Assembly (NCBI GenBank): GCA_965215605.1
Contig: OZ244070.1
Location: 3,776,001-3,840,000, forward strand
Length of the DNA stretch: 64,000 bases
Reading direction: 5' to 3'
Source: an uncultured Candidatus Binatia bacterium
GTDB taxonomy: Bacteria; Desulfobacterota; Binatia; UBA9968; JAJDTQ01
Program-made: the position numbers and the translations under genes
Shown: positions 3,651 through 40,120 of the stretch, in pieces
Numbering within the stretch: position 1 is the stretch's first letter
Layout of the letters: each line of letters starts with the position of its first letter
The notes under the pieces: generated by a model
Told to the model about the DNA's origin: nothing
What the model saw: only the letters and a program-made list of their open reading frames with translations
Database searches by the model: none

Positions 3651-3689
3651 TCCTCCGTCACCAGACACGACACCAGGAAACGAGGCATC

Positions 3690-4178
<489 letters not shown>

Positions 4179-4182
4179 AGCC

Positions 4183-13285: not shown

Positions 13286-13544
13286 CGGATACCGACCAGC
13301 TCGGCGAATGCCCGATCGGTGCGGAAAATCCGAGGGACCCCGGAGCCGGGCTCGGGAGAATACGCGTGCCGGCGTGGGACACGGGTGACAACCGCGAAAC
13401 GCCGGCGTGTCCGTCATGGCTATTGGGGTCCCCTGCTTGGCCACGCTGGTTTACGATCCTCAAGTGATCCTGTACGATCCTTGAAGATATCCGGCATCCA
13501 GGCAACGGATGCCACGGGTGGTAATGATGCGACAGCCTCAATTC

Positions 13545-16500
13545 ATGGAACGCCGGCTACGTTCCGGAAGGGTCCGTCATCATTCTGGACGCGGCGGTAT
13601 TCTGGTTCATGTTTTGTGCGCCTTCCTGGCCTTGAGTCAGGCGAGCTTCGCGTTTGCTCAGCAGATGACGGAGGAGGAGAAGCAAGAGCAGAAGGAACTC
13701 GAGAAGCTCATCGGCAAGGAAAAGGACATCCAGTTCAAAACAGAGAGCTCGGACAAGGGCAAGGATGGTTTCGGTTCGGTCAAAGGTGATCCGAAGAGCC
13801 ATGACCCCGGGACCGATCCGAAGACACAGGAAATGATCCGAACTTATGAGGACCAGGTTGACACCACGCCTGGCACCAAGCTCGACCGGGCTGTCACACA
13901 CCGTTCTTCCGTCCATCTAGAAGGTGAGCTCAAGAAGCAGGTCGCCCGACTGGGCGGAAGCGTCCCGGCCGATGACATAGACCAGCACGTGGTCTTTCGA
14001 CCGAGTGAGGCCGCCAAGACCGACGCCGCGCTGAAAGATTGGGAGAAGAAACACTGGCGGCAACTGATCCGCGACCACAAGACGGAGCAGCTAAAACAGT
14101 CGCTACTGAGTCACGTCGAAGCGCCGCCAACCAAGCCTGTAGAACCAGGCTCGGGCGAAACCGGCCGCTTGAGCGGCAAGGGCGGCGGCCAGTCCCCCCA
14201 TAAGTCAAAGTTTTTCCAGATGATGCAGGCTGCGGGTGCGCTCAAGAAACCCGCGCCGGACAGCGCCAAGTCCACCGCCGCCCCCGGAAGCCAGGTCGCC
14301 TCCAAGGGTTCCACCCCAGGCGCCTCGCCAGCATCCGGAGGAATGCCGGGTTCACAGGCCAGCCGCCAGCCCTCAACCGCCAAGACCGCCGCTCCCAAGG
14401 GCGCAACAGCAGCGGGCGCGAAATCCACCGCCGCCCCCGGAAGCCAGGTCGCCTCCAAGGGTTCCACCCCAGGCGCCTCGCCAGCATCCGGAGGAATGCC
14501 GGGTTCACAGGCCAGCCGCCAGCCCTCAACCGCCAAGACCGCCGCTCCCAAGGGCGCAACAGCAGCGGGCGCGAAATCCACCGCCGCCCCCGGAAGCCAG
14601 GTCGCCTCCATGGGTTCCACCCCAGGCGCCTCGCCAGCATCCGGAGGAATGCCGGGTTCACAGGCCAGCCGCCAGCCGCCAACCGCCAAGACCGCCGCTC
14701 CCAAGGGCGCAACAGCAGCAGGCGCCAAGTCCACCGCCGCCCCCGGAAGCCAGGTCGCCTCCATGGGTTCCACCCCAGGCGCCTCGCCTCCATGGGTTCC
14801 ACCCCAGGCGCCTCGCCAGCATCCGGAGGAATGCCGGGTTCACAGACCAGCCGCCAGCCCTCAACCGCCAAGACCGCCGCTCCCAAGGGCGCAACAGCAG
14901 CGGGCGCCAAGTCCACCGCCGCCCCCGGAAGCCAGGTCGCCTCCATGGGTTCCACCCCAGGCGCCTCGCCGCATCCGGAGGAATGCCGGGTTCACAGACC
15001 CAGCCCCCAACCGCCAAGCAACCGTCAGGGCGCAACAGCAGACCGCCGGAAGCCAGGTCGCCTCCATGGGTTCCACCCCAGGCGCCTCGTCAGCATCCTC
15101 CCAAGGGCGCAAGAACAGCAGCAGCGGGCGCCAAGTCCACCGCCGCCCCCGGAAGCCAGGTCGCCTCCATGGGTTCCACCCCAGGCGCCTCGTCAGCATC
15201 CGGGGGAATGCCGGGTTCACAGGCCAGCCGCCAGCCGTCTTCCGTCCAGAGCACGGCTGGACAGCCTACATCGACGCCATCGGGCACCGGTACCGCTCGG
15301 AGAGGCCAGATTGCGAGTCTGCAGCAACCCGCCGACTCAGCGACCTCGAGTGGCACATCGCCAGGGAATGCCGAGGCCGGACGTACCCCGCCCTCGGCCG
15401 GGACAGGAACACAGGGGGCAGGGCAGTCAACTGGCGACCCTCTGGCCTCGTCGTTTGGAACTCAATTCAGCTTTGAAAGGGAGCGGCAGGCGCTGACCGC
15501 ACCGGACTCCGGCCCGGACGCGGCGACTCAGGGGGCGCAGCCGCCCGGTTCAACGTCGGCGGACCGACGGGTGGCCGCTCTCGCCGATCCATCGAAACCC
15601 GGAGGCTCTCACGCTGCCAGCGGAGAAGGCAGCCCCGGAGAACCCTCACGTTCCGGCACGACGGAACTCGCGGTTGCCGGCGACCAGGTCCACGGGGCCG
15701 GCACTGGCGAGAAGCCGCCTGGACAGAGCCCGGGAGACGGTTCCGAACAGCAATTGTCCGAAGCCGGCAAAACGCCGGACGACCAGAGCGGCATACCGTC
15801 CGGTACCGAAACCGCCGCGGCACCCTCCAGCGGACCGGAAACCGGGACCCGCGAGGTGACATCCGGCGATACGCCCGATGTCACCTCGCGGGACAGTGCG
15901 TCCAAGGAGCCCGAAGGAACCGGCTCCGAACAGTCGACCCAGGTGGCCGTTCCCTCGCCCCACGATCACACCGGGGATGCAACCGCGGGTACAGAGTCGG
16001 GTGGCGACGACCGGCCAAGCACCAGCGGGAGTGATTCCGAACCCCAGGAAGTTGCCGAGCGCGCCAGCGCCCCCGAGGGCGAGCGTCCGCGCATCGCCGA
16101 TAAAACGGCCCTCTCCCCGGAGGAAATGGATAAAGCCCTCGATGCCGTAGACAAGCTCGAGAAGGGCGAGGTCCTTGCCGAAGCGGACCGGGAACTCCTC
16201 CGAAGACTCGGAGCCGAGGTGGCGGGCGAAAACCGTTCCGCAAACGAGTATGACACGTTGGCCTCCCGTTGCCATGGTGTTGCCAAAGACTTCAAGGAAA
16301 TGGAGGAGGAAAACAAGGAGCGCCTGGGCACTTTCTATAAGGTTGCCACCTCGGCGGCTGCCGTTGACGAGGGGTATCCTGTGGCATCCAAACTCTTTCT
16401 CAAGACTGTTGCCGCTGTCCCAGCGGGGGCCGAGGCGAAGCAGGTGGCGAATGCCGGCAAACACACCATCGAGACAACCGAAGACCTTACGTCAAAATCG

Positions 16501-16998
16501 ATGGTTGAGACCCTGGAAAATGTAGCCGAGCGGGCCGCTGAGTTTCTTCCGGCACCTATTGATGATCGTCTGCAGGCTGCGGCCGAAGGCTTGCGGTCGA
16601 GGCGACAACTCAAGGAACTCTCCAGGTTGGACCCCGACTCTGCAGAATACAAAGCCAAGGTACGGCAGTTCGCGGAGGAAAAGAAGTCCAGGCTGGCAAG
16701 GAGACAGTGCCGATCGCTCAAAGGGATCGCGTTGGGCGAGGAGGGGTGTAGACTGGCCTTTGCGGGGGAGTCCGCTGTTGTCGCTGGAGGAAAGATCGGG
16801 GCAAGTCTGCATGACAACCTCGCTTGGAGCAAGGCCGAGAACCAGAGGCGGGAAGCTGCCGAGCAGTATGCCCTGAAGCGTAGAATCGAGTTCCAAGAAT
16901 GCGCCCGGATCGAGAGGTTCAAGGCGCAACTGGCACGGTGCCGGGATGGATACGCCGGGTGTCCGTTTTCCTCGGCGAGCCCCTTGCGCCCGGAGTAG
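13545..16998 (+). CDS. Large secreted low-complexity tandem-repeat protein, reading frame broken within the repeat array
   Basis: The N-terminal frame (ORF 13509) has a signal-peptide-like ...LCAFLALSQASFAFAQ. The repeat peptide continues in ORFs 14792 and 14236, and the latter carries the S/T/G/E-rich stalk and a Cys-containing helical C-terminus to 16998. Confidence 0.6.
14265..15237 (+). repeat. 153-bp (51-aa) tandem repeat array, about 6 copies, last ones degenerate
   Basis: Unit starts at 14265, 14418, 14571, 14724, 14906 (153+29-bp internal duplication) and 15130. Unit peptide is AKSTAAPGSQVASKGSTPGASPASGGMPGSQASRQPSTAKTAAPKGATAAG. Confidence 0.95.
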
Positions 16999-17006
16999 CC
17001 CCTGCC

Positions 17007-17321
17007 TTGATTATCAAGATCGGAAGAGCGCCGGGAAACGACTTCGTCATCGAGAATCCCACCGTGTCGCGTGAACACGCGGTGCTGGAGATCGAGGACG
17101 GGCAGATCGTCCTGCGGGATATCGGCAGCAAGTCGGGAACCTACGTGCTGGTCAACGGCAAGCCGGAACGGACCACCTATACGGTGGTCGCCGAGAACAC
17201 TTCGATCATGGTCGGGAACGAGCGTCTGCGCATCCACGACGTAGTTGACGCGGCATCCCGGAAGAGCCGCAAGGTCACCTACGTTCGCAACCCGATGACG
17301 GGCGAGATCGAGAAGCGATGA
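17007..17321 (+). CDS. FHA domain protein
   Basis: IKIGRAPGNDFVIENPTVSREHA..LRDIGSKSGTYV contains the GR and SxxH FHA motifs; TTG start after GGAG. Confidence 0.85.
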   Translation: MIIKIGRAPGNDFVIENPTVSREHAVLEIEDGQIVLRDIGSKSGTYVLVNGKPERTTYTVVAENTSIMVGNERLRIHDVVDAASRKSRKVTYVRNPMTGEIEKR

Positions 17322-18064
17322 AGCGGTTGTCATTTGCCGTTGGCGCCGCATGCCTGGCCGTCGTCCTGCTGTGCGCGATGCATCTCTACCTCTCGGACTC
17401 CGCGGCCAAGATTGTCCTGGACCGGGGCGGTCGGACGTACCCGTTCTCGGTCCAGAACGTCATGTGGATCATCTTCTTTGTCGGGCTGGCGGAAATCGTT
17501 CTCCGCTACCTCGAGGCGAGAGAGGAGGGCAGACAGCTCGGTTTCCGGTATCTGCCGGAGGACGAGGAGACGCTTCTCGTCGCGACCGACCTTCCGGCGG
17601 TGTACAAGAAGGTCTCCCTCGCCACGGGCTCCGACTACCTCTTCCTGCCGTCGCTCATCAAGCGAATCATCTCGGTGTTCCAGACCACGAAATCGGTCGA
17701 GAATGCGAGCGCCGTGCTCAACAGCAGCATCGATCTGCGCTCCCACGACCTCGACCTGAAATACAACATTCTGCGCTATGTCATGTGGGTCATTCCGACC
17801 CTCGGCTTCATCGGCACGGTGATCGGGATCTCGGATGCGCTGGCCTACGCAGGCGAGCCTGGGCGCAGCCAGGACCCCAATCTGCTGACCGAGCTCACGG
17901 CCCGGCTGGCGGTGGCATTCTATACGACGCTGGTTGCACTGGTGATGTCCGCCTTTCTCGTCCTCGTCATGAACGTGGTGCAGAGCTTCGAGGAGCGGAT
18001 CATCAACAGGTGCGGCCAGTATTGTCTGGATAATCTGGTCAATCGACTCTACAAGGTAGAATAG
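17318..18064 (+). CDS. MotA/TolQ/ExbB proton channel family protein
   Basis: IPTLGFIGTVIGIS and LAVAFYTTLVAL signature helices; N-terminal TM segments. Confidence 0.88.
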   Translation: MKRLSFAVGAACLAVVLLCAMHLYLSDSAAKIVLDRGGRTYPFSVQNVMWIIFFVGLAEIVLRYLEAREEGRQLGFRYLPEDEETLLVATDLPAVYKKVSLATGSDYLFLPSLIKRIISVFQTTKSVENASAVLNSSIDLRSHDLDLKYNILRYVMWVIPTLGFIGTVIGISDALAYAGEPGRSQDPNLLTELTARLAVAFYTTLVALVMSAFLVLVMNVVQSFEERIINRCGQYCLDNLVNRLYKVE

Positions 18065-18067
18065 GTT

Positions 18068-18688
18068 ATGTTCAGACGGAAACGGAACACAAGCAAGGCG
18101 CCCGAGATTCCGGCCGTCTCCCGGAACCAGGAAATCGACGAGGACGAGACGATCGTCATCGACCTGTCCGAGCCGCACCAGCCGGGCCCCGAGGCCGTCA
18201 CGCTGGAACTGCCGGAAGAGGTCGAGGTGTCCGTATCGTCACCCGCTCTCGGGACCCCCGATGAAACGGTGGTGCTCACGGCCGGGTCGCGCGCAACCGC
18301 GCCGCCGCCGCCGGCCGGACCCGCCCCCGGGCCCATGTCCGCGGTCGACCCCGGCAATCGCGCCGGGTGGCTCGTGGTGGTTTCCGATTCCGGTTTCGGC
18401 CGCGCCTTCGGCCTGTCTCTCGGGCGCAGCACCGCCGGCCGCTCGGCGGCAAATGCCATATCGATCGACTGGGACGTGGCCGTCTCGGCCGAGGCGCATG
18501 CCATCATCGCCGCGGACCCGAAGTCCCGGAAGTTCTACGTCGTTGCCGGCAACTCGACCAATCTTGCCTATCTGAATGGCGCGCCGATCCTTAATACCGA
18601 GGAAATGTCCGATGGCGACAGGCTTCAGATCGGTGAGACCGAGATGGTGTTCGTCCAGCTCTTCGGCAAGTATGTCGACTGGCGCTGA
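18068..18688 (+). CDS. FHA domain protein with Pro/Glu-rich N-terminal linker
   Basis: GWLVVVS..GRAFGL..GRSAANAISID...VSAEAHA...TNLAYLNG...GDRLQIGET. Confidence 0.8.
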   Translation: MFRRKRNTSKAPEIPAVSRNQEIDEDETIVIDLSEPHQPGPEAVTLELPEEVEVSVSSPALGTPDETVVLTAGSRATAPPPPAGPAPGPMSAVDPGNRAGWLVVVSDSGFGRAFGLSLGRSTAGRSAANAISIDWDVAVSAEAHAIIAADPKSRKFYVVAGNSTNLAYLNGAPILNTEEMSDGDRLQIGETEMVFVQLFGKYVDWR

Positions 18689-18708
18689 GGGCATCGGAAA
18701 GGTGCGAG

Positions 18709-19425
18709 GTGCGGATCGCCGCATCGAAAATCCGCTATCAGGGAACCCGTGATTCACAGGAGGATTTCGTCAGCCTGTTGTCGATCCGCAACCGGGGACA
18801 CGCCGCGGTCGGCGGGATACTGACCGACGGCATCGGCGGGCTGCCTGGCGGCGGCGATGCAAGCGCTACGGTGAACGCCTTCAGCCGGGCCTGGCTCGCG
18901 GACGAGTTGCCCGCGGTGGTGGAGGGCGATGTCGAAATCGAGAGTTGCCTCCGCCGCCTGCCGGCGGCGGCCGATGAGGCGCTGGCCTGTTACCAGTCGG
19001 AGAGCGGTATCCCTGACTGCGGAACCACATTGGTTGCCGCGGTTGTCCTCGATGAGGTCTGCCACTTCGTCTCGGTGGGCGATTCCCTGGTGCTTGCCAT
19101 CAACGCGGACCGAACGCTCACCCGTCTCAATCAACTTCACAACGCCGAGTTGGACGGGAGAGCGGCGCTGACCGCCGCGATTCTCGGACGCGGCATCAAG
19201 GCCATCGATCAGGGCAAGGCCCGTCTCGGCCCGGGCGGCCATCACAGCATCCTGCTGGCCTCGGACGGGATCCGGACACTTCGCGATGACGAGGTCGTCG
19301 CGGAATTGGACCATGCCTCCGAGGGCCCGTTGCGCCAAGTCGTGGACAGGGTGCGCCGCAAGCAGGCGGTGCGGCAGGACAATCTGGCAATGGCGCTGTT
19401 CCGCGTAGTGGCCGTCGGGACATAG
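18709..19425 (+). CDS. PP2C-family Ser/Thr protein phosphatase
   Basis: QGTRDSQED, TDGIGG, GTTLV, SVGDS, LASDG, and QDN motifs. Confidence 0.88.
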   Translation: MRIAASKIRYQGTRDSQEDFVSLLSIRNRGHAAVGGILTDGIGGLPGGGDASATVNAFSRAWLADELPAVVEGDVEIESCLRRLPAAADEALACYQSESGIPDCGTTLVAAVVLDEVCHFVSVGDSLVLAINADRTLTRLNQLHNAELDGRAALTAAILGRGIKAIDQGKARLGPGGHHSILLASDGIRTLRDDEVVAELDHASEGPLRQVVDRVRRKQAVRQDNLAMALFRVVAVGT

Positions 19426-19531
19426 GACAGGGTCCCTGCAACCGTCTTCAGGCTCATCTTCGGCTTGCGGGCTGGAAGCCGTTTGGATATGGATACGGGC
19501 GGACACGGCTCGATTCGGGAGGGGGAATTGC

Positions 19532-21043
19532 ATGTTCAGAATCTTTTGTTCCGTAGCTTCCATGCTCGTTCTGGCTGGATGTATGGGAGGACTCGGAGGG
19601 TCCTGGGGCCCGGGCGCCGACGACAAGACACCGGTAAGAATCGAACCCGCCAAGTTCCGTGGCCTGCCCGTGGTAAGGGTGAGCTTCGTCGCCAGTGTCG
19701 ACGCTTCGGCCCGATTGCGCTACCAGGATGCCTACTGGAAGAATCCGATTCCCTCCCGCGCCAGCGACGAGTCCGAGGAGGGAGACGTCGCTACCAAGCC
19801 GGCCGACGGCAGCACGGCGGAGATCAACTTCAACGCGATGGAATCGAAGAACGTCTTCTACGCGTTTCATCTCGCCAAGTATCTGGAGGCCCGCGGCAGG
19901 GGGACCTACCTCGTCTTCCTCAATCCGGAAGTAGTGAAACACGACGACACCCGAGGGTTCTACCGTGAATCCTACGAAGACGGCCTGCCTCCGCATGACG
20001 TGGATGTCAGCTTCGGAGCCTATGTCCATCCGGACACCAAGCCGTCGAACGTGGTCGACACCACCTACGGCGAGTGGATCGCGCCGATCATTTCGGTACG
20101 CGTCGACAAGGCGTTCTCTTCCGCTACCGCCGGAGCGGTGGGACTTCCGGACCGGCTGACCTCGTATGCCGCCGACAGCGACGGCTACGGCGCGCGCGCG
20201 CAACTGGTGGATTTCCTCAATGCCAGGATCGGCAGGCCGACGGCGGTCAACCCGGGCACGGCGCGGGACAGCGGCAAACTCGCCGCCGGGGAATTCTACG
20301 CGCTCCCATCCGGTGAGGCCAGGTTGTCCGAGGGCGGGATCCCGAAGGAGGAGTTGACTGCGCAGGAGCTCGACGCGGTGTCCTACAATCCAGGCCGGCT
20401 CGACGCGTTCCCCGTCTACAAGGGCGTCCATCGGATTGTCGAGGTGGCGCTTGCCAAGGTCGACAATTCGAGGACGGCAACTCGTTCCCAGGAGGACTAC
20501 TGGGCGTTCTACGGCGAACCGAATGCGTCGACCATCGTCCTGCAGCGTAGCGACCGGGGCAAGCGTCGTTTTCTGGTCCGGGCGCGGCAGGCGGAACTTC
20601 AGTATCTTCGAGACCGGGATCGCAACTGGATGGAGGCGGTTCTGAACACATCCGACTTCACTTCCGGCTTCAACGAGTTGCGCGAGGCGGAGTTGAAGGC
20701 TCGGAACGAATTCGTCCAGGCCCGGATGAAGCAGGGACTAGGCGCGCTGCTGGCGGTAGGTGGTGCATTCGCTGCTGTCGGCGGCGCGCAAAGCGACAAT
20801 CCCCTCGCTACCGGAGCCGGGATGGCGATGGTCGGCACGGGGCTCACCATGGCTATATCGGCGCAGACGGTCATCGACCGTATCAACCAGGGGTTCGACA
20901 CCGCCTTCAGCAACTCCTACAATTCGCAACGGGACTATATCGTGGAGTTCGAGGAAGCCGAAAGGGAGACGATCAGGGCGCGCAACTATGAGGACTTCAG
21001 GAAACAACTCAAGAACCGCTACGCCAAGCGTTTTGGAGCGTAA
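19532..21043 (+). CDS. Putative lipoprotein with C-terminal glycine-rich hydrophobic hairpin
   Basis: Lipobox LVLAGC; C-terminal GLGALLAVGGAFAAVGG...GAGMAMVGTGL. Confidence 0.65.
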   Translation: MFRIFCSVASMLVLAGCMGGLGGSWGPGADDKTPVRIEPAKFRGLPVVRVSFVASVDASARLRYQDAYWKNPIPSRASDESEEGDVATKPADGSTAEINFNAMESKNVFYAFHLAKYLEARGRGTYLVFLNPEVVKHDDTRGFYRESYEDGLPPHDVDVSFGAYVHPDTKPSNVVDTTYGEWIAPIISVRVDKAFSSATAGAVGLPDRLTSYAADSDGYGARAQLVDFLNARIGRPTAVNPGTARDSGKLAAGEFYALPSGEARLSEGGIPKEELTAQELDAVSYNPGRLDAFPVYKGVHRIVEVALAKVDNSRTATRSQEDYWAFYGEPNASTIVLQRSDRGKRRFLVRARQAELQYLRDRDRNWMEAVLNTSDFTSGFNELREAELKARNEFVQARMKQGLGALLAVGGAFAAVGGAQSDNPLATGAGMAMVGTGLTMAISAQTVIDRINQGFDTAFSNSYNSQRDYIVEFEEAERETIRARNYEDFRKQLKNRYAKRFGA

Positions 21044-22361
21044 CCGGTGGACGGTGGCAGCGGGCCTCTCGATCGGACTGCTGTGGCTTGCGCTATCGGC
21101 AACCGCTCAAACTCCGGACATACAGCGCGGTGAGATCTGGCGGTATTGCGAAGAATACTTCGTCAAGGTCGAGGATCTCAAGAACGGGAAGGTCCCGGTC
21201 AGCAACGACGAGGCCCACTACCGCGTCCGTGACCTGTCGAGAGACTTCCTGCGTCTCGCCAAAGGTTTCCGGCCACGGAGTACGGAAGAGGGCCATGTTC
21301 TCGGAGAGTGCCTCAACCTTGCCAACGGCAACGCCTTGTTCTCCTTCGAGCAGGTGCAGAATCTGGAAGCCCAGGACGATGACTTCGTTGACATGGCCAC
21401 GACCGAGGCCATCAACAACTCGCGCGCCAGGGAGTTCGACACAAAAAAGGAGCTGGGACAGAAGTACGACCTCATGCGTGACGCCGAGATCGCCCGCGCG
21501 ACCTTCGATAGCGAGATCCGGGCGATAAACAACCATATCCTCGAGAATATCGCCACGGCCAATATGGCCGTGGCCCAGGCCACACGGAGTCACTTGGACC
21601 AAAGCTCCCGGTTGGGGCTCGCTCGCGGCGGGTACAACACCGCCTACGGTCCCAACGGCACCATCGTTTCCTTCAATGCCTTCTCGTTTCTCATTGCGAA
21701 GGCAAGCCAATCCATGATCAAGACGCGGTCGCAGCCACTTGCGCCGGGCCTGACGGCCTCCGCTCCCGCGGGGCAGAATGCCGCGGTGCCGGGGACCTAT
21801 ACAGCGGCGCCCCCGACTCCACCTTCCGCTCCTGGACCGGCCGGCAAGCTCTCCGCGCCCGCCCGTAAACCCGCAACCTCCGCGGCGGCGACGCCCGTGT
21901 CGGTCGCTACCGCATCAGGGGCTCCTGCATCGGCGACTCCTGCGTCAACGGCCCCAGCCTCGCCGACTACTGCATCGGCGTCGCCTGCGTCAGCACCGTC
22001 TGGCAGCAGGGTTCCTGCAACCGGCACGACCGGACCGACGTCAGCCGACACCACTGCGCTCGCGGCGGTGCCTGCCCCGGTCGACAGCAAGGCTCCCGAG
22101 GCCGATACACGCTGCGCCGCCTACCGCCTGACCGGCGATGGCGGGAAGTTCGCCGAGCTCGAAAACAAATGCGACATTCCCATCAGTTGGCTCTGGTGCT
22201 GGGTCCCGAAAGGAACGCCTGACTGCGAGCCCGACCAAGCCTCCGAAATCGTTCCCGCGAGGAGTCGCGTCCTGCTTCCCGGACCCGGGCCCGGCGAAAC
22301 CCCGCGTGCGGTGTTCCGCATCTGCGACATGTCGGATCCAGACAAGTTTTGCACGCTTTGA
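21033..22361 (+). CDS. Secreted hypothetical protein with Ala/Pro/Thr linker and C-terminal Cys-rich domain
   Basis: Signal-like WTVAAGLSIGLLWLALSATAQ, an A/P/T/S-rich linker, and six Cys in the last ~85 aa; start codon uncertain. Confidence 0.6.
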   Translation: MERNRWTVAAGLSIGLLWLALSATAQTPDIQRGEIWRYCEEYFVKVEDLKNGKVPVSNDEAHYRVRDLSRDFLRLAKGFRPRSTEEGHVLGECLNLANGNALFSFEQVQNLEAQDDDFVDMATTEAINNSRAREFDTKKELGQKYDLMRDAEIARATFDSEIRAINNHILENIATANMAVAQATRSHLDQSSRLGLARGGYNTAYGPNGTIVSFNAFSFLIAKASQSMIKTRSQPLAPGLTASAPAGQNAAVPGTYTAAPPTPPSAPGPAGKLSAPARKPATSAAATPVSVATASGAPASATPASTAPASPTTASASPASAPSGSRVPATGTTGPTSADTTALAAVPAPVDSKAPEADTRCAAYRLTGDGGKFAELENKCDIPISWLWCWVPKGTPDCEPDQASEIVPARSRVLLPGPGPGETPRAVFRICDMSDPDKFCTL

Positions 22362-22362
22362 C

Positions 22363-24807
22363 ATGGTGCTGCTTCCGAACAACGCGAAGATCGCAGAATA
22401 CAAGATTCTCGGGCATCTCGGCAGCGGCGGGTTCGCCAACACCTACCGGGCGTACGACAGCAATCTCGACAAGGACGTCGCGATCAAGGAGTTCTTTCCG
22501 AGGCGGTACTGCAGCCGGGACGAGAACTATCGGGTGCTTCCCCTTCCCGGTGAGGAGGAGCGGTTCCGGTCCTTGCGCGACTCCTTCCTGCGGGAAGCCC
22601 GCATCCTCGCCCAGTTCGACGAAAAAAACATCGTCAAGGTGCTGCGCTATTTCGAGGGCCTCGAAACCGCGTACATGATCATGGAGTACGTGGACGGCCG
22701 GAATCTCGGTTCGGTGATCCAGGAAAATGTCGTTCAGCCCGAGGATAGGGTCGTGGGCTGGCTCCGTGGACTTCTTCGCGGGCTCGGGACGGTCCACGCC
22801 GGCAAAGTCATCCACGGCGATATCAAACCGAGGAACATCATCATTACCGAGTCCGACGAAGCGGTGCTGATCGATTTCGGCGCGGCGGTCGCCCATGACG
22901 CGGATTCCGACGACGGCGCCGCCGAGGTGACGGAGACCGCCGGGGAGGTCTTCGCCAGTCTCAACTATGCCGCCCCCGAGCAGCTTCACGGCGACCGCGT
23001 CGATCAACGCACCGATCTCTATTCGCTTGGCTCCGTCTTCTACGAACTCGTTACCCACGAAAGACTCGGCCGGGACCGGACGGAGGAGATCGCCGAGGAC
23101 CAGATCCTGGCCTATGGCCGGTTCTACGGCGCCCGCTTTCTGAGGACCATTCATCGCGCGATCCAGCTCGATCCGGAGACCCGATTTTCCGATTCCGAGA
23201 GCTGGCTCGAAGAGTTGACGCTGTCGCGATGGGAGAAGACCGGGAGATTTCTGCGCCGAAGGCGCAAATCGCTGATCGCGGCGGCCGTGGTTCTCGCCGC
23301 CGCAACCTACGCCGTGAACTACGTCGTCGAGAACGAGATCGACCGCGAAAACGCTTATTTCAAGATCCTGGCGTCGAAGGCCGAGATCGACGCGCAGATG
23401 GATCTCGGGCACGGATACCGGAGGAAGTTGGAGAAGGCGCGCGACTATCTTTCCGCCTACGCAACCGAATACCGCTCGCAGGTCGACAGGCTCGCGCCCG
23501 CGAACCTGATTACGGGACGCTCCTCGGTGGAGGGCCTGCGGCAGACGGTGCGCGTGACCGAGTCCTTGGCGACAAGGCTGTCGGCCGTTGCCGCCAGGAT
23601 CGACGCGATGCAGGCGAAATACTATTTCAGCCGTTACCCGGGTGCTGTCGAGGAGGCGGACCGCCTGGTCAGGGACATCGATGCCCGGATCGCCCGTTTG
23701 ACACGGGATCTTCTCGCCGCCATCGTCGAGAATGGCATCGTCGGCGAAGGTCGCAGGCGCCGGATCCGTGTCGACAACGTCGGGCTTGCGGAGCTCGTCA
23801 CCGGGGTCAAGGAAAGCGCGGAGCCGGTCACCCTGCCGGAGATGGTGCCGAGAAGCCGGCCGCTGGTGGATTCCTTCCTCACGCGCCAGCTTGAGCGCAT
23901 GCAGCGTGCGCGGCTCGCGCGCGAACGGGCCAGCACCCTGTCAAGGCTTGCGACGCTCCGCGATGCCTACCCGAAGGGAAGCCGCGCCGCGGTATTCCCG
24001 AAACTGATCGAAGAGGCGCGTCAGGCTGATGCGTTGAAGGACCTGAAGGCGCTCGTCGCCCGAGGCGAGCGCACTGCCAAGACCATCGACCGGGAACTGC
24101 AACTCGCCGAGGTCCGCCGCAAGAAGCTGCGTGCCGAAGCCAAGCTCCGCGGCGCCATACAGAAGATCGAGGCCGGAATGCGGCCGGTTCCTCCGGGCCG
24201 GTTCAAGATGGGCGGCCCCGACCAGGGCTATGCCCAGCCGGTCCGCGAGGTCTCGGTCTCCCGGTTTTTCCTCGGAGTCAACGAAGTCAGCGTCGCCGAA
24301 TGGATGGTGTGCGTGAGAGAGAAGAAATGCGCGGCCGCAAGCGGCACCAGGATGGACCGTCCGGTCACCGGCATCACGTGGAACCAGACGCAGGAGTTCA
24401 TCCGTTGGCTGAACGGGCGCAGCAGGCGCTACCGCTTCCGGTTGCCGTCGGAGGCCGAATGGGAATACGTGATCAAGCGCTACGGCTACCGCGAGAAGGA
24501 ACTGTCAGGCGGCCTCATGTCGATCACCGCGAACAACACCAACAAGCTCGGCCTCAACGCGATGCTCGGCAATGCACTCGAATGGCTCGATGACTGCTGG
24601 CACGGCGGCTACTACCGCGCGCCCGTGGACGGCTCCTCCTGGAACCGCGGACTACAGTGCAACAAACGAGTGGTGCGCGGCAGCAGTTGGGACGGCAAGC
24701 ACCGCCTTGAAGCGAGAAACGCCGCCTATTTCCGGCCGCCTCAGGGTGTCGAGCGCACCAAGTCTTTGCCGACCCTTGGTTTTCGACTCGCGGGTGACCG
24801 GAAATGA
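22363..24807 (+). CDS. Membrane Ser/Thr protein kinase fused to a C-terminal FGE-sulfatase (SUMF1) domain
   Basis: Kinase motifs LGSGGFANTY, VAIKE, IHGDIKPRN, IDFG, YAAPEQ and DLYSLG; then a TM, a coiled coil, and FGE motifs FRLPSEAEWEY, GNALEW, RVVRGSSW and LGFRL. Confidence 0.9.
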   Translation: MVLLPNNAKIAEYKILGHLGSGGFANTYRAYDSNLDKDVAIKEFFPRRYCSRDENYRVLPLPGEEERFRSLRDSFLREARILAQFDEKNIVKVLRYFEGLETAYMIMEYVDGRNLGSVIQENVVQPEDRVVGWLRGLLRGLGTVHAGKVIHGDIKPRNIIITESDEAVLIDFGAAVAHDADSDDGAAEVTETAGEVFASLNYAAPEQLHGDRVDQRTDLYSLGSVFYELVTHERLGRDRTEEIAEDQILAYGRFYGARFLRTIHRAIQLDPETRFSDSESWLEELTLSRWEKTGRFLRRRRKSLIAAAVVLAAATYAVNYVVENEIDRENAYFKILASKAEIDAQMDLGHGYRRKLEKARDYLSAYATEYRSQVDRLAPANLITGRSSVEGLRQTVRVTESLATRLSAVAARIDAMQAKYYFSRYPGAVEEADRLVRDIDARIARLTRDLLAAIVENGIVGEGRRRRIRVDNVGLAELVTGVKESAEPVTLPEMVPRSRPLVDSFLTRQLERMQRARLARERASTLSRLATLRDAYPKGSRAAVFPKLIEEARQADALKDLKALVARGERTAKTIDRELQLAEVRRKKLRAEAKLRGAIQKIEAGMRPVPPGRFKMGGPDQGYAQPVREVSVSRFFLGVNEVSVAEWMVCVREKKCAAASGTRMDRPVTGITWNQTQEFIRWLNGRSRRYRFRLPSEAEWEYVIKRYGYREKELSGGLMSITANNTNKLGLNAMLGNALEWLDDCWHGGYYRAPVDGSSWNRGLQCNKRVVRGSSWDGKHRLEARNAAYFRPPQGVERTKSLPTLGFRLAGDRK

Positions 24808-25877
24808 AGGTGCGGCAACTCCTTTTCGGACTCCTGGCCGCGTCGCTGTTTGCCGCGGGAAACTCCGCGGCGGAAACCAGGTTCCTGTTCAGCTCCCAGT
24901 CGAAAAATCACAAGTTCAGTGTCGTGTCGGTCGACGGGGGGCTCGTGGTGGATTCACGCCTGTCTCCCTCCCTCGGTTCCGGCCTGACGCTCCGCTACAT
25001 CGCGAGGGAAACCGACATCACGATCCAGGCCGTGAACGTTCCGCCGCCTGTCGAGGTTTTCACCTACTTCAACGGCCCGCCGCCCGGCGACATCTGCAGG
25101 CATGCCGTGTTCCTCGGAGAACTTTTCGCCCCGACGGGAATCGAGCACCGTGTCTATGCCGACGGCGAGCCGAAGTGTACCGACGTCGCTCCGGCGGGTG
25201 AGGGCGCACGCCGCCTGGCCGCGGACCTGGCGGACCTCACGGAGGGGTATGTCCGGCGGCTTCTTTTCGTCGTGGGACCCGCGGCCCCGGGGAACGTTCC
25301 GGAAATCGTCTGGCAACAACGCCGGATCACTGCCAAGGAGTTCCGCGCGAAGGCGACGCTGCTGCGGGAGTTGACCACCTTGCTCGAAAACGCCCGTGAG
25401 GGCCAAGTGTCGTTTCTCTCCTCGGCGGTCTATCGCGTGTTCGGCGGTCCCGTGGTTGCGGTCATTGGGACCGCAGCGGGCGAAGCCGGACGCGTCACCC
25501 TGCTTGCCGCCGGCGACGTCGGTCCACCCTACGAGCTCTGGCTGTTTCTCGGCCTCCCTGTGGTGGCCATCGCCGTGCTGGTCCTGCTGGTTATCGTGCT
25601 CGTTCGCAGACGGCGGCGGAAACGGACGATCACGAGTTCCCCGGTCAAGAGGGTGATCCGCATCGGCTATGGCCCGGATCTCGACATTTCCCTCGGCGAC
25701 GAGGGAGAGCGCGAAGTGCTGTCCATTCGGGTCCACCAGGACGGCCTCGCTACCGCCACCGCCGTCAGTCGGGTCGACAAAATCTCGCTCAACGGCAAAC
25801 GCTTCTCCGGCACCGGCCGGATCTCCCCCGCCGATTCGCTCTTCGTCAACGACCGCAGGATCCTCTTGAGGATATGA
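24804..25877 (+). CDS. Single-pass membrane protein with possible degenerate cytoplasmic FHA-like domain
   Basis: Signal peptide, TM LWLFLGLPVVAIAVLVLLVIVLV-RRRRRKR, then IRIGYGPDLDI...LNGK...ISPADSLFV. Confidence 0.6.
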   Translation: MKVRQLLFGLLAASLFAAGNSAAETRFLFSSQSKNHKFSVVSVDGGLVVDSRLSPSLGSGLTLRYIARETDITIQAVNVPPPVEVFTYFNGPPPGDICRHAVFLGELFAPTGIEHRVYADGEPKCTDVAPAGEGARRLAADLADLTEGYVRRLLFVVGPAAPGNVPEIVWQQRRITAKEFRAKATLLRELTTLLENAREGQVSFLSSAVYRVFGGPVVAVIGTAAGEAGRVTLLAAGDVGPPYELWLFLGLPVVAIAVLVLLVIVLVRRRRRKRTITSSPVKRVIRIGYGPDLDISLGDEGEREVLSIRVHQDGLATATAVSRVDKISLNGKRFSGTGRISPADSLFVNDRRILLRI

Positions 25878-26824
25878 AACGCCGCGATCGCTCGATCGAG
25901 ACCATCAGCCTGTCCGCCATCGACCTGTTCGCGTCGGCGCTGGGAGCGTTCATCGTCATTACCGCGGTCTTGATCCCGTATTACCCCAATCTCAAGGATG
26001 GCCACCGCAATGTCGCGGTCCTCGAACGCGAAGCCCAGGAGAACCAGAAACGCACGGCGCGGGCGGTGGAAGCCGAACAACTCGCCCGTGCCGAGGCGAA
26101 ACGCCGCCGTGAGCAACAGGCGGCGGCGGCGGCGAAGGCACGCACGCAGCGGCGGCGGATCCACGCCGCCATCCAAAATGAGCACACAAAAGGTATCGCG
26201 CTCCGGAGTACCGTGAAGGACCTGACGAAGAACCTGTCGAATCTGCAAAAGGAGAATCAGGCACGGCGCAGACAGTTCGCGGGAAGGCAGTCGGAGTTTT
26301 CGATATTGGGCCTGGTCCTCAAGGCCAGGTCGATCGTCATCGTCGTCGATCTTTCCGGAAGCATGAGTAACTGGAGCGGCCTCATGGTGAAGACACTCAC
26401 CGAGATCGTTTCGTCGTTTCACGACGGGATCCGGTTCGCCATCCTCGGGTATCAGGGCACGCGCGGCGTGTCCCAGTTCTGGCCCGCGCGCAAGCAGATG
26501 GCGCTCGCGGACACGCGAAGCAAATCGAGTGCGCTGGCGTTCGTCAGGAGCCTTCCGAGCCGCTTCGATGGATCCACGCCCACCCAGACAGCGCTCTTGA
26601 CCGCCCTGGTATACAAGCCACAGGCCATTGTCCTGATCAGTGACGGTTCACCGACCGACGCCGAGCCGGACGACATCGTCGCCAAGCTCACGCGCCTCAA
26701 TCGCGGAGTCACGGCAATCCATACGGTGGCGCTTGGTGACTACCTGAAACATCCTGAGCTCGTCGTGTTCCTCAGCAAGCTCGCGGCGCGGAACAAGGGG
26801 CGTTTCGTCGGTGTGATCCGGTGA
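25874..26824 (+). CDS. TM-Asp / coiled-coil / vWA domain protein (intact MIDAS)
   Basis: N-terminal SLSAIDLFASALGAFI TM, a coiled coil, and VVDLSGSM, GSTPT, LISDGSP. Confidence 0.85.
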   Translation: MKRRDRSIETISLSAIDLFASALGAFIVITAVLIPYYPNLKDGHRNVAVLEREAQENQKRTARAVEAEQLARAEAKRRREQQAAAAAKARTQRRRIHAAIQNEHTKGIALRSTVKDLTKNLSNLQKENQARRRQFAGRQSEFSILGLVLKARSIVIVVDLSGSMSNWSGLMVKTLTEIVSSFHDGIRFAILGYQGTRGVSQFWPARKQMALADTRSKSSALAFVRSLPSRFDGSTPTQTALLTALVYKPQAIVLISDGSPTDAEPDDIVAKLTRLNRGVTAIHTVALGDYLKHPELVVFLSKLAARNKGRFVGVIR

Positions 26825-27768
26825 AGAAGAAGATCCGCGATATCGAGGTTTTCAACCTGTCCGCCCTGGACCTGTTTGCCTCGGCCATGGGCGCATTTGT
26901 CCTGCTGAGCGTGATGATGCTGCCGTACTTCTTCAAGGGCAAGGAACTGGAAGAGGTCATGGAGCATCTGAAGCAGGAGGTCGCGGCCACCGCCGCGCAA
27001 GCCGGTGAAGCCGAAGCCGCCGCGCGCACGGCCGTGACCGCCGCACGGAACGTCACCGAAGACAACGTCGCCGAGACGGGCAAGGGGGGGCGTGAACTGG
27101 CGGCGCTCCGGGCGAAGTCCGCGGAACTCTCGGCGCGAATCGATGGCCTCCGGAAGGAAATCGAACGGGAGAAGCGGAAGAAGGTCGCTGTCAAGCCTGA
27201 CAAGGGTGGGCACAAGGTCTCTTTCCGCCTGCTCGGCCTGAAAACCAACGAAGACCGCTATCTGATCCTGATCGACGGTGCGGCGAGGATCAAGAGAAAC
27301 ACAGGCAATCTGCCGAAGGTCCTGACCGAGGTGGTATCGGTCTTCGGGCCCGGAAAGGAGTTCGCCATCGCCTTCTACCGGCACGCCGCCGCCGGGCTGC
27401 TATACGAGCGCTGGCCCAAGACCGGCTTTGTCGAAGGCTCCTCCGAGACTCGGACCAAGGCGGTAGCTTTCATGAAAAAACAGTATGAAAAGATGTCGGG
27501 CCGAAGCGCCACCTACCAGGCCCTCGAACGGGCGGTCGGCGAACAGGCCGACGCGGTGATCTTCATCTCGGACGGCTTCATTTCCCGCAAGACCAATCTC
27601 GGACGCGGTCCCGTTCAGGTCATCGACGAGATCAGCGGAAAGAATTCACGGGGCATCCAGGTGAACAGCGTTGCCGTCGGCGTCTGGTTCCGCAATCCCG
27701 GCTTTGCCGACTTCATGAACCAACTCAGACTGCGGAACGGCGGCGACTTCAAGGGCGTGCCGCCCTGA
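26821..27768 (+). CDS. TM-Asp / coiled-coil / vWA domain protein (degenerate MIDAS)
   Basis: NLSALDLFASAMGAFV TM, a coiled coil, and LILIDGAAR, SATYQAL, FISDG, VNSVAVG. Confidence 0.8.
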   Translation: MKKKIRDIEVFNLSALDLFASAMGAFVLLSVMMLPYFFKGKELEEVMEHLKQEVAATAAQAGEAEAAARTAVTAARNVTEDNVAETGKGGRELAALRAKSAELSARIDGLRKEIEREKRKKVAVKPDKGGHKVSFRLLGLKTNEDRYLILIDGAARIKRNTGNLPKVLTEVVSVFGPGKEFAIAFYRHAAAGLLYERWPKTGFVEGSSETRTKAVAFMKKQYEKMSGRSATYQALERAVGEQADAVIFISDGFISRKTNLGRGPVQVIDEISGKNSRGIQVNSVAVGVWFRNPGFADFMNQLRLRNGGDFKGVPP

Positions 27769-27841
27769 TCGACAGGCAACGCGTCGAACGCGGTCTCCAT
27801 GACTCGCCGCGGTCCGGTATTGAGCCGGCCGACTGACGGCT

Positions 27842-28498
27842 TCAGAATCCGGGAGCGACTTTCCTGGTCCGCTCCAGCCCCTCCCACGTATCGATGACCT
27901 CCCGGTGGGACGCCACCAGGCCGAACTGGCGGCGGGTGTTCTCCAGGGTGCCTTCGTGGAGCACCGGGTCGGGACCGGCCATGCAGTCGTCCACCATGGT
28001 GACGTAGTAGTCCAGCATGAAGGCGTCGCGCATGGTGCTTTCCACGCACACATTGGTGGCCACGCCGGTCAGGAGGACGCTCTCGATGCCCTTGGCCCTG
28101 AGGATGGTTTCCAGGTCGGTGTTGATGAAGGCGCTGTAGCGGTGTTTGATCACCACCCGCTCGTCCGCCCGGGGCTCGATGCCGTCGAAGAAATCGGCGC
28201 CCCAGGACCCCTCGCGGCAGGTCTCGGTATCGGCGCCCTCCGGCTTGCGGTAGAGCCACGGCTCGGTGTCGGTCCACTCGCTGTGGATGGTCTGGATGTA
28301 GACGATGGGCAGGCTCACCTCCCTCGCCTCGTTGATGAGCTTGTAGAGGTTGGGCATCATCTCGAGACCTGATCTGACATCCAACCCACGCTTGGCGCAG
28401 GCACCCTCCGGGCTGCAGAAATCGTTCTGCACATCCACCACGATCAGCCCCGCCAGGGAGGGGTCGCAACGCTCCTTGAGACTTCTCAACACGCTCAT
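27842..28498 (-). CDS. Isochorismatase-family cysteine hydrolase (amidase, RutB-like)
   Basis: VVDVQNDF, KHRYSAF, and GVATNVCVESTMRDA. Confidence 0.9.
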   Translation of the reverse strand: MSVLRSLKERCDPSLAGLIVVDVQNDFCSPEGACAKRGLDVRSGLEMMPNLYKLINEAREVSLPIVYIQTIHSEWTDTEPWLYRKPEGADTETCREGSWGADFFDGIEPRADERVVIKHRYSAFINTDLETILRAKGIESVLLTGVATNVCVESTMRDAFMLDYYVTMVDDCMAGPDPVLHEGTLENTRRQFGLVASHREVIDTWEGLERTRKVAPGF

Positions 28499-28523: not shown

Positions 28524-29342
28524 TCAATCAGCCATCATTTCTTTCTGCAGCGGAGTCAGGGCATTGGAGCAGCCCACCATGCTGTTGCGCGTCACCAGCC
28601 CTACCAGTTGTTCTTCGCTCCAGTCCTCGGTCCCCTCGGGACGCTTGGGCACAACCAGGTAGCGGGTCTCGGCGGTGCTGTCCACCACCCGCACCTCCGT
28701 GGCCTCGGGCAGCTCCAGCCCCATTTCCTTCAGCACCCGGCGGGGGTCCACCACCACGCGGGTGCGGTAGTTGGTGCTCTTGTACCAGTCGGGGGGCTGG
28801 CCGAGCAGTTGCCGCGGATAACACGAGCACAGGGTGCACACCACCACGTGGTGCACGTCGTCGGTGTTCTCCACCGCGATGAGCTGGTTGGCCGTGGACA
28901 TGTCGACGCCCAACTCCTCGGCCGCGGCGATGCCGTCCTCGAACAGACGTTTCCTGTACTCGGGGTCGGTCCAGGCCCGGGCCACCACCCGGGAGCCCTG
29001 ATGCGGTGATACGCCCTCGTTCTCGTCGATCTTGCGCCTCACCTCGTCCGTGCTGATGATGCCCTTCTCGCGCAGGAGGTTGCCGAGGGCCAGCATCTGC
29101 TTTTCGAACAGCGTGTGCTCGTGCTCGGTGGTGTCGATGGGATTGTTGGCGTGGAGCTGCTCGAACACGTCGTCGTGGCTGTGGTCGTGTCCGTGCCCGT
29201 GCTTGACGCTTCGCGTCTCGTCGGCGCTGAGGACGCCCTTTTCCTTCAACAGGTCCGCGGTTGCGCGGGCCCGCCGTTCGAAGTAGCTCGGCCCCTCGGT
29301 GGATGCCGGCTCGTTGCTTGTTTCCTGTTTGTCCTTGGCCAT
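28524..29342 (-). CDS. Co-type nitrile hydratase alpha / thiocyanate hydrolase gamma-like subunit with N-terminal extension
   Basis: VVARAWTDP, VVCTLCSCYP metal motif, PDWYKS..YR.R.V.DPR, and DSTAETRYLVVP. Confidence 0.88.
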   Translation of the reverse strand: MAKDKQETSNEPASTEGPSYFERRARATADLLKEKGVLSADETRSVKHGHGHDHSHDDVFEQLHANNPIDTTEHEHTLFEKQMLALGNLLREKGIISTDEVRRKIDENEGVSPHQGSRVVARAWTDPEYRKRLFEDGIAAAEELGVDMSTANQLIAVENTDDVHHVVVCTLCSCYPRQLLGQPPDWYKSTNYRTRVVVDPRRVLKEMGLELPEATEVRVVDSTAETRYLVVPKRPEGTEDWSEEQLVGLVTRNSMVGCSNALTPLQKEMMAD

Positions 29343-29362
29343 GACGTTCTCCCGGTATGCGT

Positions 29363-39060: not shown

Positions 39061-39099
39061 AAGACAGCCTCCTTCATCCGGCACGCTCCTGTAATAGTA

Positions 39100-40092: not shown

Positions 40093-40120
40093 GTCGTGCC
40101 GGATCCGTAGCGGGAACGTT

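Follow-up and report, generated by a model that had tools for sequence, protein, structure and literature searches.

The window analysed here is a 64,000-nucleotide stretch of DNA from an uncultured Candidatus Binatia bacterium (contig OZ244070.1, positions 3,776,001 to 3,840,000), and the subject of this work is a gene cluster within it that brings together a MotA/TolQ-type channel subunit, two vWA proteins and a set of Ser/Thr phosphorylation genes. The open reading frame (ORF) listing placed eleven tightly spaced, co-oriented genes at 13545-27768 on the plus strand. Four junctions showed 4-bp stop/start overlaps (FHA1/MotA, 17318-17321; kinase/membrane protein, 24804-24807; membrane protein/vWA1, 25874-25877; vWA1/vWA2, 26821-26824), and the remaining intergenic gaps measured 1-106 nt. 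This agrees with a first-pass annotation of the same DNA, which had reported eleven packed, co-oriented genes with overlapping stop and start codons. Its calls of FHA, MotA, FHA, PP2C, kinase-FGE and vWA domains were confirmed by Pfam, with vWA2 recognised through its paralogy to vWA1. The features of the cluster are as follows:

13545..16998, plus strand: g1, secreted repeat protein rich in Ser, Thr, Pro and Ala, comprising also an acidic region and a domain at the C-terminus; frame-disrupted in the assembly (no Pfam match)
14263..14970, no strand assigned: tandem repeat array within g1 (TRF)
16899..17321, plus strand: FHA1, small cytoplasmic FHA protein (Pfam FHA, 4.6e-15)
17318..18064, plus strand: MotA/TolQ/ExbB-family channel subunit, 248 aa, four hydrophobic segments (Pfam MotA_ExbB, 1.7e-13)
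18068..18688, plus strand: FHA2, disordered N-terminal half and C-terminal FHA domain (Pfam FHA, 3.1e-8)
18709..19425, plus strand: PP2C-type Ser/Thr phosphatase (Pfam PP2C_2, 1.3e-12)
19532..21043, plus strand: lipoprotein of a conserved family without a named domain (lipobox LAGC; no Pfam match)
21054..22361, plus strand: secreted protein combining a Pro/Ala/Ser/Thr linker and, at the C-terminus, a six-Cys domain (from the translation; no Pfam match)
22363..24807, plus strand: Hanks-type Ser/Thr kinase-FGE protein, 814 aa (Pfam Pkinase, 5.2e-38; FGE-sulfatase, 3.6e-26)
24804..25877, plus strand: bitopic membrane protein with a cytoplasmic FHA-fold tail (AlphaFold2 model and structure searches; no Pfam match)
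25874..26824, plus strand: vWA1 (Pfam VWA, 3.1e-12)
26821..27768, plus strand: vWA2, paralogue of vWA1 (no Pfam match at E<=0.01)

Models for ExbD, TonB, OmpA, Tss and ZorB/C/D gave no match to any of the 12 translated pieces of the cluster in Pfam, PADLOC or NCBIfam, and none of its proteins reached a curated NCBIfam cut-off. The absence of TonB, OmpA, Tss and ZorC/D, claimed earlier, therefore stands. The accompanying claim that the cluster lacks ExbD is true by homology, but both vWA proteins carry the feature that would fill its role, a single transmembrane (TM) helix with an invariant Asp. PADLOC returned only weak ZorA matches to MotA (1.1e-5, 22.6 bits), together with matches of the kinase to the PD-T4-6 and mad6 models.

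A species-genome scan yielded 292 relatives, and the best 80 loci were kept for counts; 39 of these had at least 7 kb on both sides and formed the full-flank set. The ORFs of each locus were searched with the window proteins and then with hidden Markov models (HMMs) rebuilt from the matches. The 80 loci came from Hyphomonadaceae, Rhodospirillaceae, Lysobacterales/Wenzhouxiangellaceae and other Gammaproteobacteria, with one Rhodothermales and one Terrimicrobiaceae metagenome-assembled genome (MAG). Two vWA ORFs were present in 38 of the 39 full-flank loci (77 of all 80), MotA in 37 (69), the kinase/FGE gene in 38 (61), and the lipoprotein family in 31 (55). After three more HMM rounds, a g1-like secreted acidic protein was found in 36 full-flank loci (54 of all 80). 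FHA proteins were recovered in 20 of the 39 (37 of 80), PP2C in four (seven of 80), the membrane protein in one (four of 80) and the Cys protein in one (three of 80). Many genera of Hyphomonadaceae and of Lysobacterales keep the same gene order, and two Rhodospirillaceae MAGs (L008 and L009) hold all eleven genes at 38-58% identity, rearranged as two divergent operons. The first-pass annotation had named a failure of the genes to co-occur in other genomes as the observation that would speak against it. The results showed that the genes recur together across several phyla and that they form one conserved unit around the MotA/TolQ-type channel and the two vWA proteins, as it had proposed.

The cluster MotA is one of three MotA_ExbB genes in the genome and the sole one without an adjoining ExbD gene; the other two each have one of the genome's two ExbD genes as a neighbour. 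Its motifs GFIGTV (with T167) and TT (residues 203/204) were conserved at 90% or above in 72 sequences, and its best solved relative was flagellar MotA (9luc, E 0.15), aligned over the Thr motifs. The TolQ equivalog of NCBIfam scored 19.6 bits on the cluster against a cut-off of 221. An ExbD-family HMM built from 32 sequences found nothing beside the vWA-linked MotA in any of the 80 loci. Its 10 matches all fell in Lysobacterales-type loci, at 2-7 kb upstream of the vWA genes, and a separate weak MotA_ExbB-family ORF (E 1e-5 to 7e-7) lay just before the ExbD gene in those ten loci, so that these genes look like canonical ExbB-ExbD pairs. These loci are L068, L055, L062, L082, L084, L035 and L076 (ExbD genes at about 1.4-4.4 kb) and L070, L079 and L081 (at about 5.3-7.9 kb). 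In three Gammaproteobacteria MAGs (L037, L052 and L086), the vWA pair, FHA, kinase-FGE and lipoprotein were kept, and a MotA-family ORF was not detected between FHA1 and the following gene.

The two vWA proteins share one architecture. vWA1 begins with a short basic N-terminal tail, followed by the TM helix 'SAIDLFASALGAF..PYY' with Asp17, a coiled linker and a C-terminal vWA head whose metal-ion-dependent adhesion site (MIDAS) motif is intact (DLSGS). vWA2 resembles it (E 1.2e-30, 30% identity) and has the same kind of Asp-bearing TM helix, together with a degenerate MIDAS motif (DGAARIK). The N-terminal helix DLFASA(L/M)GAF is common to both. Each protein has a single hydrophobic segment after the basic tail (residues 16-34 in vWA1 and 10-28 in vWA2), and the predicted topology places both heads in the periplasm. 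The N-terminus was the most conserved part of the vWA1 relatives, with S14, A15, D17, L18, F19, A20, G24, F26, P35 and Y36 invariant in 20/20 sequences, and the same Asp (D17) was invariant in 26/26 second-position paralogues. With the N-terminal 50 residues of vWA1 and of vWA2 as queries, Pfam gave no ExbD or MotB match at E<=10.

The asymmetry of the pair extends beyond this locus. First-position paralogues read D(M/L)SGSM at the MIDAS wherever the pattern was read, and second-position paralogues read DMN.. or DGA... In the tree, 70 second-position vWA proteins formed one clade that excluded all 70 first-position proteins (support 0.986). These results indicate that the vWA duplication is ancient and that the pair is asymmetric, with the MIDAS intact at position 1 and lost at position 2. 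The trees of MotA, vWA1 and vWA2 were congruent across 61 loci, with normalised Robinson-Foulds distances of 0.36-0.55 versus at least 0.948 in 200 label shuffles, which shows joint inheritance of the three genes, not contact between their products. Full-length vWA1 relatives of about 300 aa numbered 594 proteins at E<=0.001 among 8000 candidates scored, and a profile of 20 vWA1 sequences matched 138 clusters at E<=1e-30 among 1.84 billion representatives.

The tail of vWA1 varies with lineage. The motif [DE]T[TSA]VF was found in 20 of 29 kinase-bearing loci versus 8 of 41 kinase-less loci, a difference that is confounded by phylogeny. Before the Asp helix, most kinase-bearing Gammaproteobacteria read R[DE]T[TSA]VF (e.g. 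L059, L068 and L084), and kinase-less Hyphomonadaceae read RRNI[SA]VF. The R[DE]T[TSA]VF tail resembles the ETTSVF phospho-site of GarA/OdhI.

The kinase-FGE protein runs from a kinase domain (residues 1-290) through a TM helix (304-322) and a coiled region in the periplasm to an FGE-sulfatase-fold domain at the C-terminus (about 606-814). Among 26 aligned FGE domains, 25 had no Cys after the RG[GS]S[WF] motif, the place where we take the catalytic pair of a true FGE to sit. Because this Cys is missing, the FGE domain looks catalytically dead, suggesting a docking role. Both FHA proteins retain the phospho-Thr-binding residues in their family alignments. In FHA1 the residues GR, S..H and S.NGT were conserved in 19 members, and its best NCBIfam match was GltG (2.3e-11; 43 bits against a cut-off of 650). 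The FHA1 stop codon overlaps the MotA start codon and FHA1 is translationally coupled to MotA; its true start may be 16959 or 17007. Elsewhere, an FHA ORF lay directly 5' of MotA in 31 of 68 loci. The FHA2 family alignment keeps GR, H and a Thr in the N-terminal half at about residue 67 (ETVVL), with an NCBIfam OdhI match of 2.2e-7; we take this layout, a disordered N-terminal half with a conserved Thr, to be like that of the GarA/OdhI switches.

The phosphorylation genes were much less constant than the channel and the vWA pair. Searched with separate kinase and FGE queries, an FGE ORF was present in 58 of the 80 loci; 27 of these had both kinase and FHA, 28 had neither, one had the kinase only (on a 4.8-kb contig) and two had FHA only. 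The kinase and FHA thus come and go together. About half of the related loci, all of Hyphomonadaceae type, encode an FGE-domain protein that lacks a kinase domain, and FHA is absent from them; in Algimonas arctica (L011), for instance, Pfam on representative loci showed that the homologue of the kinase is TM-anchored with an FGE domain only, and no FHA gene was present. In L071 and L034 the sensor is swapped for Sel1-repeat kinases and Trypsin_2-TM-FHA proteins. Together with their Sel1-repeat kinases, such other subtypes hold two PP2C genes, a soluble vWA-FHA fusion and the Trypsin_2-TM-FHA proteins (L034 2-1324 and 6255-7799; L071 8555-9994). Since about half of the loci have neither kinase nor FHA, and PP2C occurs in few, the earlier proposal that threonine phosphorylation is the integral switch of the system has to be given up; the phospho-threonine set is an optional, lineage-specific control layer and not integral to the machine. 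Because this layer comes and goes, the constant machine consists of the channel, the vWA pair, the FGE domain, the lipoprotein and the secreted acidic protein.

In its AlphaFold2 model (pLDDT 64.9, pTM 0.71), the lipoprotein (503 aa) has an alpha/beta part at the N-terminus and a long helical hairpin whose hydrophobic tip is rich in Gly. The lipobox Cys was present in every complete member listed of the family. A whole-model Foldseek search of the PDB gave nothing at E<=0.001. The wide VIA-align search gave a best Z of 8.2 on the hairpin (373-462) alone, a generic match, the N-terminal domain not having been searched separately. All clusters returned by the Atlas search were unnamed, the weak leads being TraT (0.76) and CsgG/Gly-zipper (0.75). 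Hyphomonadaceae lipoproteins (e.g. L011 7272-9188) are longer, at about 640-680 aa, with an extra C-terminal 130-150 residues rich in G-x-G-Y repeats.

The first gene of the cluster, g1, encodes a hydrophobic signal-like segment at its N-terminus and contains tandem repeats, as expected for the secreted repeat protein of the first-pass annotation, but it is not one open frame here. Near 14790, where 29 bp are perfectly duplicated in tandem (14755-14817), the reading frame passes from 0 to 2, and near 14975 it passes from 2 to 1. Three ORFs in three frames (13509-15476, 14792-15496 and 14236-16998) share the same repeat peptide, which shifts among them. TRF reported periods of 153 (3.4 copies, 97% matches), 29 (2.2 copies, 100%) and 182 (2.0 copies). 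In the close relative G014, the orthologous ORF is intact and encodes 1474 aa (L092 524-4948, minus strand). The frame shifts in g1 may stem from misassembly of the repeats, from decay or from a slippage switch. Four public runs from one study cover g1 as short-read contigs that end inside the repeats (14292-15224), and these neither confirm nor refute the 29-bp duplications. At 15876-15976, within the acidic region of g1, each of the four runs also yields contigs of a form lacking 99 nt in frame; the joint has only 26 letters on its shorter side, and the form may be a repeat copy-number variant. Among the 80 loci, the g1-like protein was the ORF directly 3' of the kinase/FGE gene each time, wherever that gene was called in the locus.

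The two remaining proteins are restricted in distribution. Homologues of the Cys protein were found in L007-L009 only, among the 80 loci, and the protein gave no Pfam, NCBIfam or usable Atlas match. The membrane protein has a signal peptide, a periplasmic beta-rich domain, a TM helix (249-267) and a cytoplasmic tail (about 280-357), for which an FHA-like nature had been raised as a possibility. In the AlphaFold model this tail is all-beta (pLDDT 84-89) and takes the FHA fold, and FHA domains stood at the top of both structure searches: the leading VIA-align match was the FHA domain 3gqs_B (Z 10.3, rmsd 2.4 A, 77 residues), FHA domains filled about 30 of the 50 rows, and Foldseek returned FHA domains at E 4.6e-5 to 8e-4. 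By sequence, the tail had no Pfam FHA match at E<=10 and reads GYG where the FHA family aligns GR; a weak hhalign profile match linked it to the TM-FHA proteins (probability 16.6%, E 0.0015). The Cys protein and the FHA-fold membrane protein mark a Binatia/Rhodospirillaceae subtype.

The distribution of the cluster among near relatives was then compared. Its closest public-genome match was a Candidatus Binatia MAG with vWA1 88% identical. A vWA1 query matched 4 of 41 related genomes, namely the source itself (G000), G014 (same genus, 90% identity), G004 (same genus, 27% over part of the protein) and G029 (another family, 24%). The close form of the cluster was present in the source and in one of 24 other same-genus genomes searched. 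The gene 5' of the cluster is present in 26 of 28 genomes of the genus, and it directly adjoins the genes 3' of the cluster in 6/6 relatives cut out. Because the neighbours are adjacent in all six, the block of about 14.5 kb (13286-27844), which lies between a fumarase-C-like gene and an isochorismatase gene, is an insertion in the genus. The cluster genes had GC content at third codon positions (GC3) of 0.69-0.83, below most flanking genes. The flanks consist of ordinary metabolic genes, no integrase or transposase domains were found among 41 flanking ORFs, and both island junctions, inspected by eye, showed no obvious repeat or att site. These results indicate that the cluster was horizontally acquired. 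L003 (from G029) and L004 (from G004, same genus) carry a second, divergent vWA pair, 24-27% identical to vWA1 and adjoining a MotA-family gene; given the pair in L004, the genus holds at least two subtypes of the motor class.

Proton motors of 5:2 type power flagella, Ton/Tol transport, gliding, type IX secretion (T9SS) and Zorya defence. The accessible text of PMC12204202 (Mol Biol Evol 2025) predicts, computationally and without experiments, motors made of a TolQ-like channel and paired, TM-tethered 'transpore-helix vWA' (TPH-vWA) proteins. These vWA homologues are described there as co-occurring tightly with tolQ homologues, without tolR or exbD, as forming mostly heterologous pairs, and as present in Proteobacteria and beyond; AlphaFold 3 placed the conserved Asp pair of the transpore helices inside the Thr ring of the channel. 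Like these motors, our cluster has a MotA-family gene alongside vWA genes without a syntenic tolR, exbD or motB, a heterologous vWA pair in which each protein has a single N-terminal TM helix with a conserved Asp, and conserved Thr residues in the channel helices. The locus fits every stated TPH-vWA feature, a fit made by features and not by sequence comparison with the Idiomarina seed of the paper. We conclude that the cluster is probably a member of this TolQ-like/transpore-helix vWA class of putative 5:2 proton-driven envelope motors. The first-pass annotation had proposed a distinct, undescribed system; its core, at least as the accessible text of PMC12204202 presents it, had already been predicted. 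The locus differs from the published motor in adding nine further genes. The words kinase, phosphatase and forkhead do not occur in the main text of that paper, and no FGE, lipoprotein or secreted partner is mentioned in its section 8; the wider conserved core and the asymmetry between a MIDAS-intact and a MIDAS-dead head are new beyond it. Literature searches on TolQ/MotA with vWA, FHA and kinase found no paper that links kinase, FHA, FGE or lipoprotein partners to the motor.

Such a machine might work as follows. The 248-aa MotA/TolQ-family protein would form a pentameric channel, into which a vWA1-vWA2 heterodimer would insert its Asp17 helices in place of MotB, ExbD or TolR. In the periplasm the pair would expose its vWA heads, one of them MIDAS-competent and the other MIDAS-dead, and proton flow would turn or pull the two heads against periplasmic or outer-membrane partners. 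Candidates for these are the co-travelling large lipoprotein, the dead-looking FGE-fold domain, which here would be the periplasmic end of a Hanks kinase, and the secreted acidic disordered protein. FHA1, FHA2, the FHA-fold membrane protein and PP2C would superimpose a layer of reversible threonine phosphorylation, either to gate the motor from the cytoplasmic side or to signal that it is engaged. The likeliest role would be force transduction from the inner membrane to the outer membrane, the surface or periplasmic partners, as in adhesion or envelope remodelling.

Comparison with the classical motors supports the channel and separates the partner. As in MotAB, ExbBD and TolQR, the cluster has a MotA_ExbB-family channel with conserved Thr motifs and a partner with one N-terminal TM helix and an Asp near its cytoplasmic end. 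Unlike theirs, the cluster partner has no ExbD, TolR or MotB homology and neither an OmpA-like nor a TonB/TolA element; in the periplasm it carries a vWA domain, and it always comes as two different paralogues. An assignment to Ton/Tol-Pal was rejected, there being no ExbD/TolR partner and no TonB/TolA transducer in the cluster (Pfam and NCBIfam).

Contact between the FGE domain and a vWA head in the periplasm would be plausible because two systems offer precedents. In the H1 type VI secretion system (T6SS), the periplasmic FGE domain of TagR has been modelled binding the periplasmic domain of PpkA (accessible text of PMC13713981), which is a vWA domain (PMC3224232, likewise in part). In the T9SS, non-catalytic FGE-fold PorK forms a ring served by the PorLM 5:2 motor (accessible text of PMC12421860). 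The T9SS resembles our cluster in that PorLM is a 5:2-type motor driven by the proton-motive force and reaching the periplasm, with a non-catalytic FGE fold and outer-membrane lipoproteins. Homology is limited, however, to the FGE fold (GldK/PorK at 47.2 bits against an NCBIfam cut-off of 350), the cluster has no PorM, PorN or Sov genes, and the carrier phyla differ. It is conceivable, if rather unlikely, that the FGE domain docks on the MIDAS-bearing vWA head and that in kinase-bearing lineages the machine is a mechanosensor, in which the kinase would read rotor load across the membrane and FHA proteins on the motor would read phospho-threonine. The [DE]T[TSA]VF tail of vWA1 or the ETVVL of FHA2 would be possible phospho-sites in such a scheme. 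If true, it would join an ion-driven motor to Hanks-type signalling in a feedback loop, and no ion-motor/Hanks-signalling coupling of this kind was found in the literature searches.

Several other explanations would account for parts of these data. An apparatus for surface motility or adhesion like Myxococcus Agl-Glt, in which a TolQ-type motor drives a complex that spans the periplasm and terminates in a vWA adhesin, FHA-bearing inner-membrane proteins serving as scaffold, would be a special case of the motor with a defined output. Its ingredients also include a TolQ-type motor, FHA, vWA and lipoproteins (accessible text of PMC11761067). The large secreted repeat protein and the lipoproteins of the cluster would suit it, as would the GltG match of FHA1, although that match lies far under its cut-off. 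No Glt or Agl equivalog scored above any NCBIfam cut-off, however, and the vWA domain sits here on the motor subunit and not on an outer-membrane adhesin. The carrier groups are not known to glide, and we consider this output doubtful. In the accessible text of PMC12204202, gliding was raised for its other vWA family. A Zorya-type defence against phages or other invaders, in which the MotA-like channel would sense envelope perturbation and trigger an effector through kinase, FHA and PP2C signalling, draws on the patchy presence in the genus, the 14.5-kb insertion, the lower GC3 and the weak PADLOC matches to ZorA, PD-T4-6 and mad6. The ZorA resemblance is nevertheless thin: the cluster MotA has 248 aa and no long ZorA tail, the ZorA profiles (505 and 583 positions) match about 90 residues of it, and the PADLOC kinase matches cover the generic kinase domain alone. 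Zorya unites a ZorA bearing a long cytoplasmic tail, a PG-binding ZorB, and ZorC/D or ZorE. In Pfam and PADLOC, neither an effector domain such as a nuclease, helicase or protease nor ZorB, ZorC or ZorD was found, the conserved partners are all periplasmic or lipoproteins, and the same gene order across genera of Hyphomonadaceae and Lysobacterales looks like envelope equipment kept vertically in whole families. A defence role, which the first-pass annotation had left among its options, is accordingly not favoured and seems improbable.

The phosphorylation genes could also be viewed as an orphan phospho-threonine sensor of T6SS type (PpkA/PppA/Fha/TagR) or a TerY-P-like stress triad, with MotA as an incidental neighbour. 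The TerY-P triad consists of a soluble TerY-type vWA protein, PP2C and a Ser/Thr kinase, and all three domain types are present in the cluster. The TerY-P comparison, drawn in the first-pass annotation, was rejected on topology, since both cluster vWA proteins are TM-anchored and their heads are predicted to lie outside the cytoplasm, and PP2C occurs in 7 of 80 loci. The likeness to the H1-T6SS threonine phosphorylation pathway (PpkA, PppA, Fha1 and TagQ/TagR) is broader, covering a Hanks kinase, PP2C, FHA, a periplasmic vWA domain, an FGE fold and lipoproteins, with the PpkA vWA and the TagR FGE domains documented in the accessible parts of the papers cited above. In the cluster, by contrast, the FGE domain is on the kinase, the vWA domains are on the motor subunits, and a MotA-type channel is present. 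Neither VipB/TssC (PF05943) nor Hcp (PF05638) was found in the 97.08%-complete genome, and the cluster gave no Tss match. MotA was the gene most tightly linked to the vWA pair (37/39), the kinase, FHA and PP2C are dispensable, and the vWA proteins are TM-anchored with an invariant intramembrane Asp. A sensor with an incidental MotA is thus very improbable. Overall, the earlier view that the locus is not a T6SS, Zorya or Ton/Tol locus was borne out, with only weak ZorA matches and no Tss, ZorB/C/D, ExbD or TonB match in the cluster.

A number of observations weigh against the assignment to the TPH-vWA motors. Six genes separate MotA from the vWA genes in the window, the vWA pair occurs without a detected MotA in 2 of 39 full-flank loci (L037 and L086), and the match of MotA to a solved MotA is weak (E 0.15). 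When 140 vWA N-termini were compared with 32 ExbD sequences by hhalign, the probability was 0.26% and the Asp residues were unaligned; judged from sequence, the vWA helix appears to resemble ExbD in features and context only. Iteration of the family HMMs used the very 80 loci that were counted, and two clades dominate these loci, so that the co-variation of kinase and FHA reflects few independent events. The g1-like family is of low complexity, which makes its count the softest and possibly inflated. The frame disruption of g1 in the window means that this copy is perhaps partly decayed, or that the assembly is wrong in the repeats.

A motor class with an integrin-like vWA head on its inner subunit has so far been predicted only, and the locus and its relatives provide a concrete parts list for it, comprising the channel, the vWA pair with live and dead MIDAS, the FGE-fold partner, the lipoprotein and the secreted acidic protein. 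Lineages with and without the kinase and FHA offer a natural comparison in which function and regulation can be tested, including in cultured Hyphomonadaceae (Algimonas and Litorimonas). Should Ser/Thr signalling in fact act on the motor, this would be a new mode of control for the motor family.

Elsewhere in the window, two molybdopterin (xanthine-dehydrogenase-family) gene sets were located at 2784-7817 and 37678-42376, each near a UbiD-family decarboxylase, and a nitrile hydratase alpha gene was located at 28527-29441. Together, these genes look like ordinary aromatic or heterocycle catabolism.

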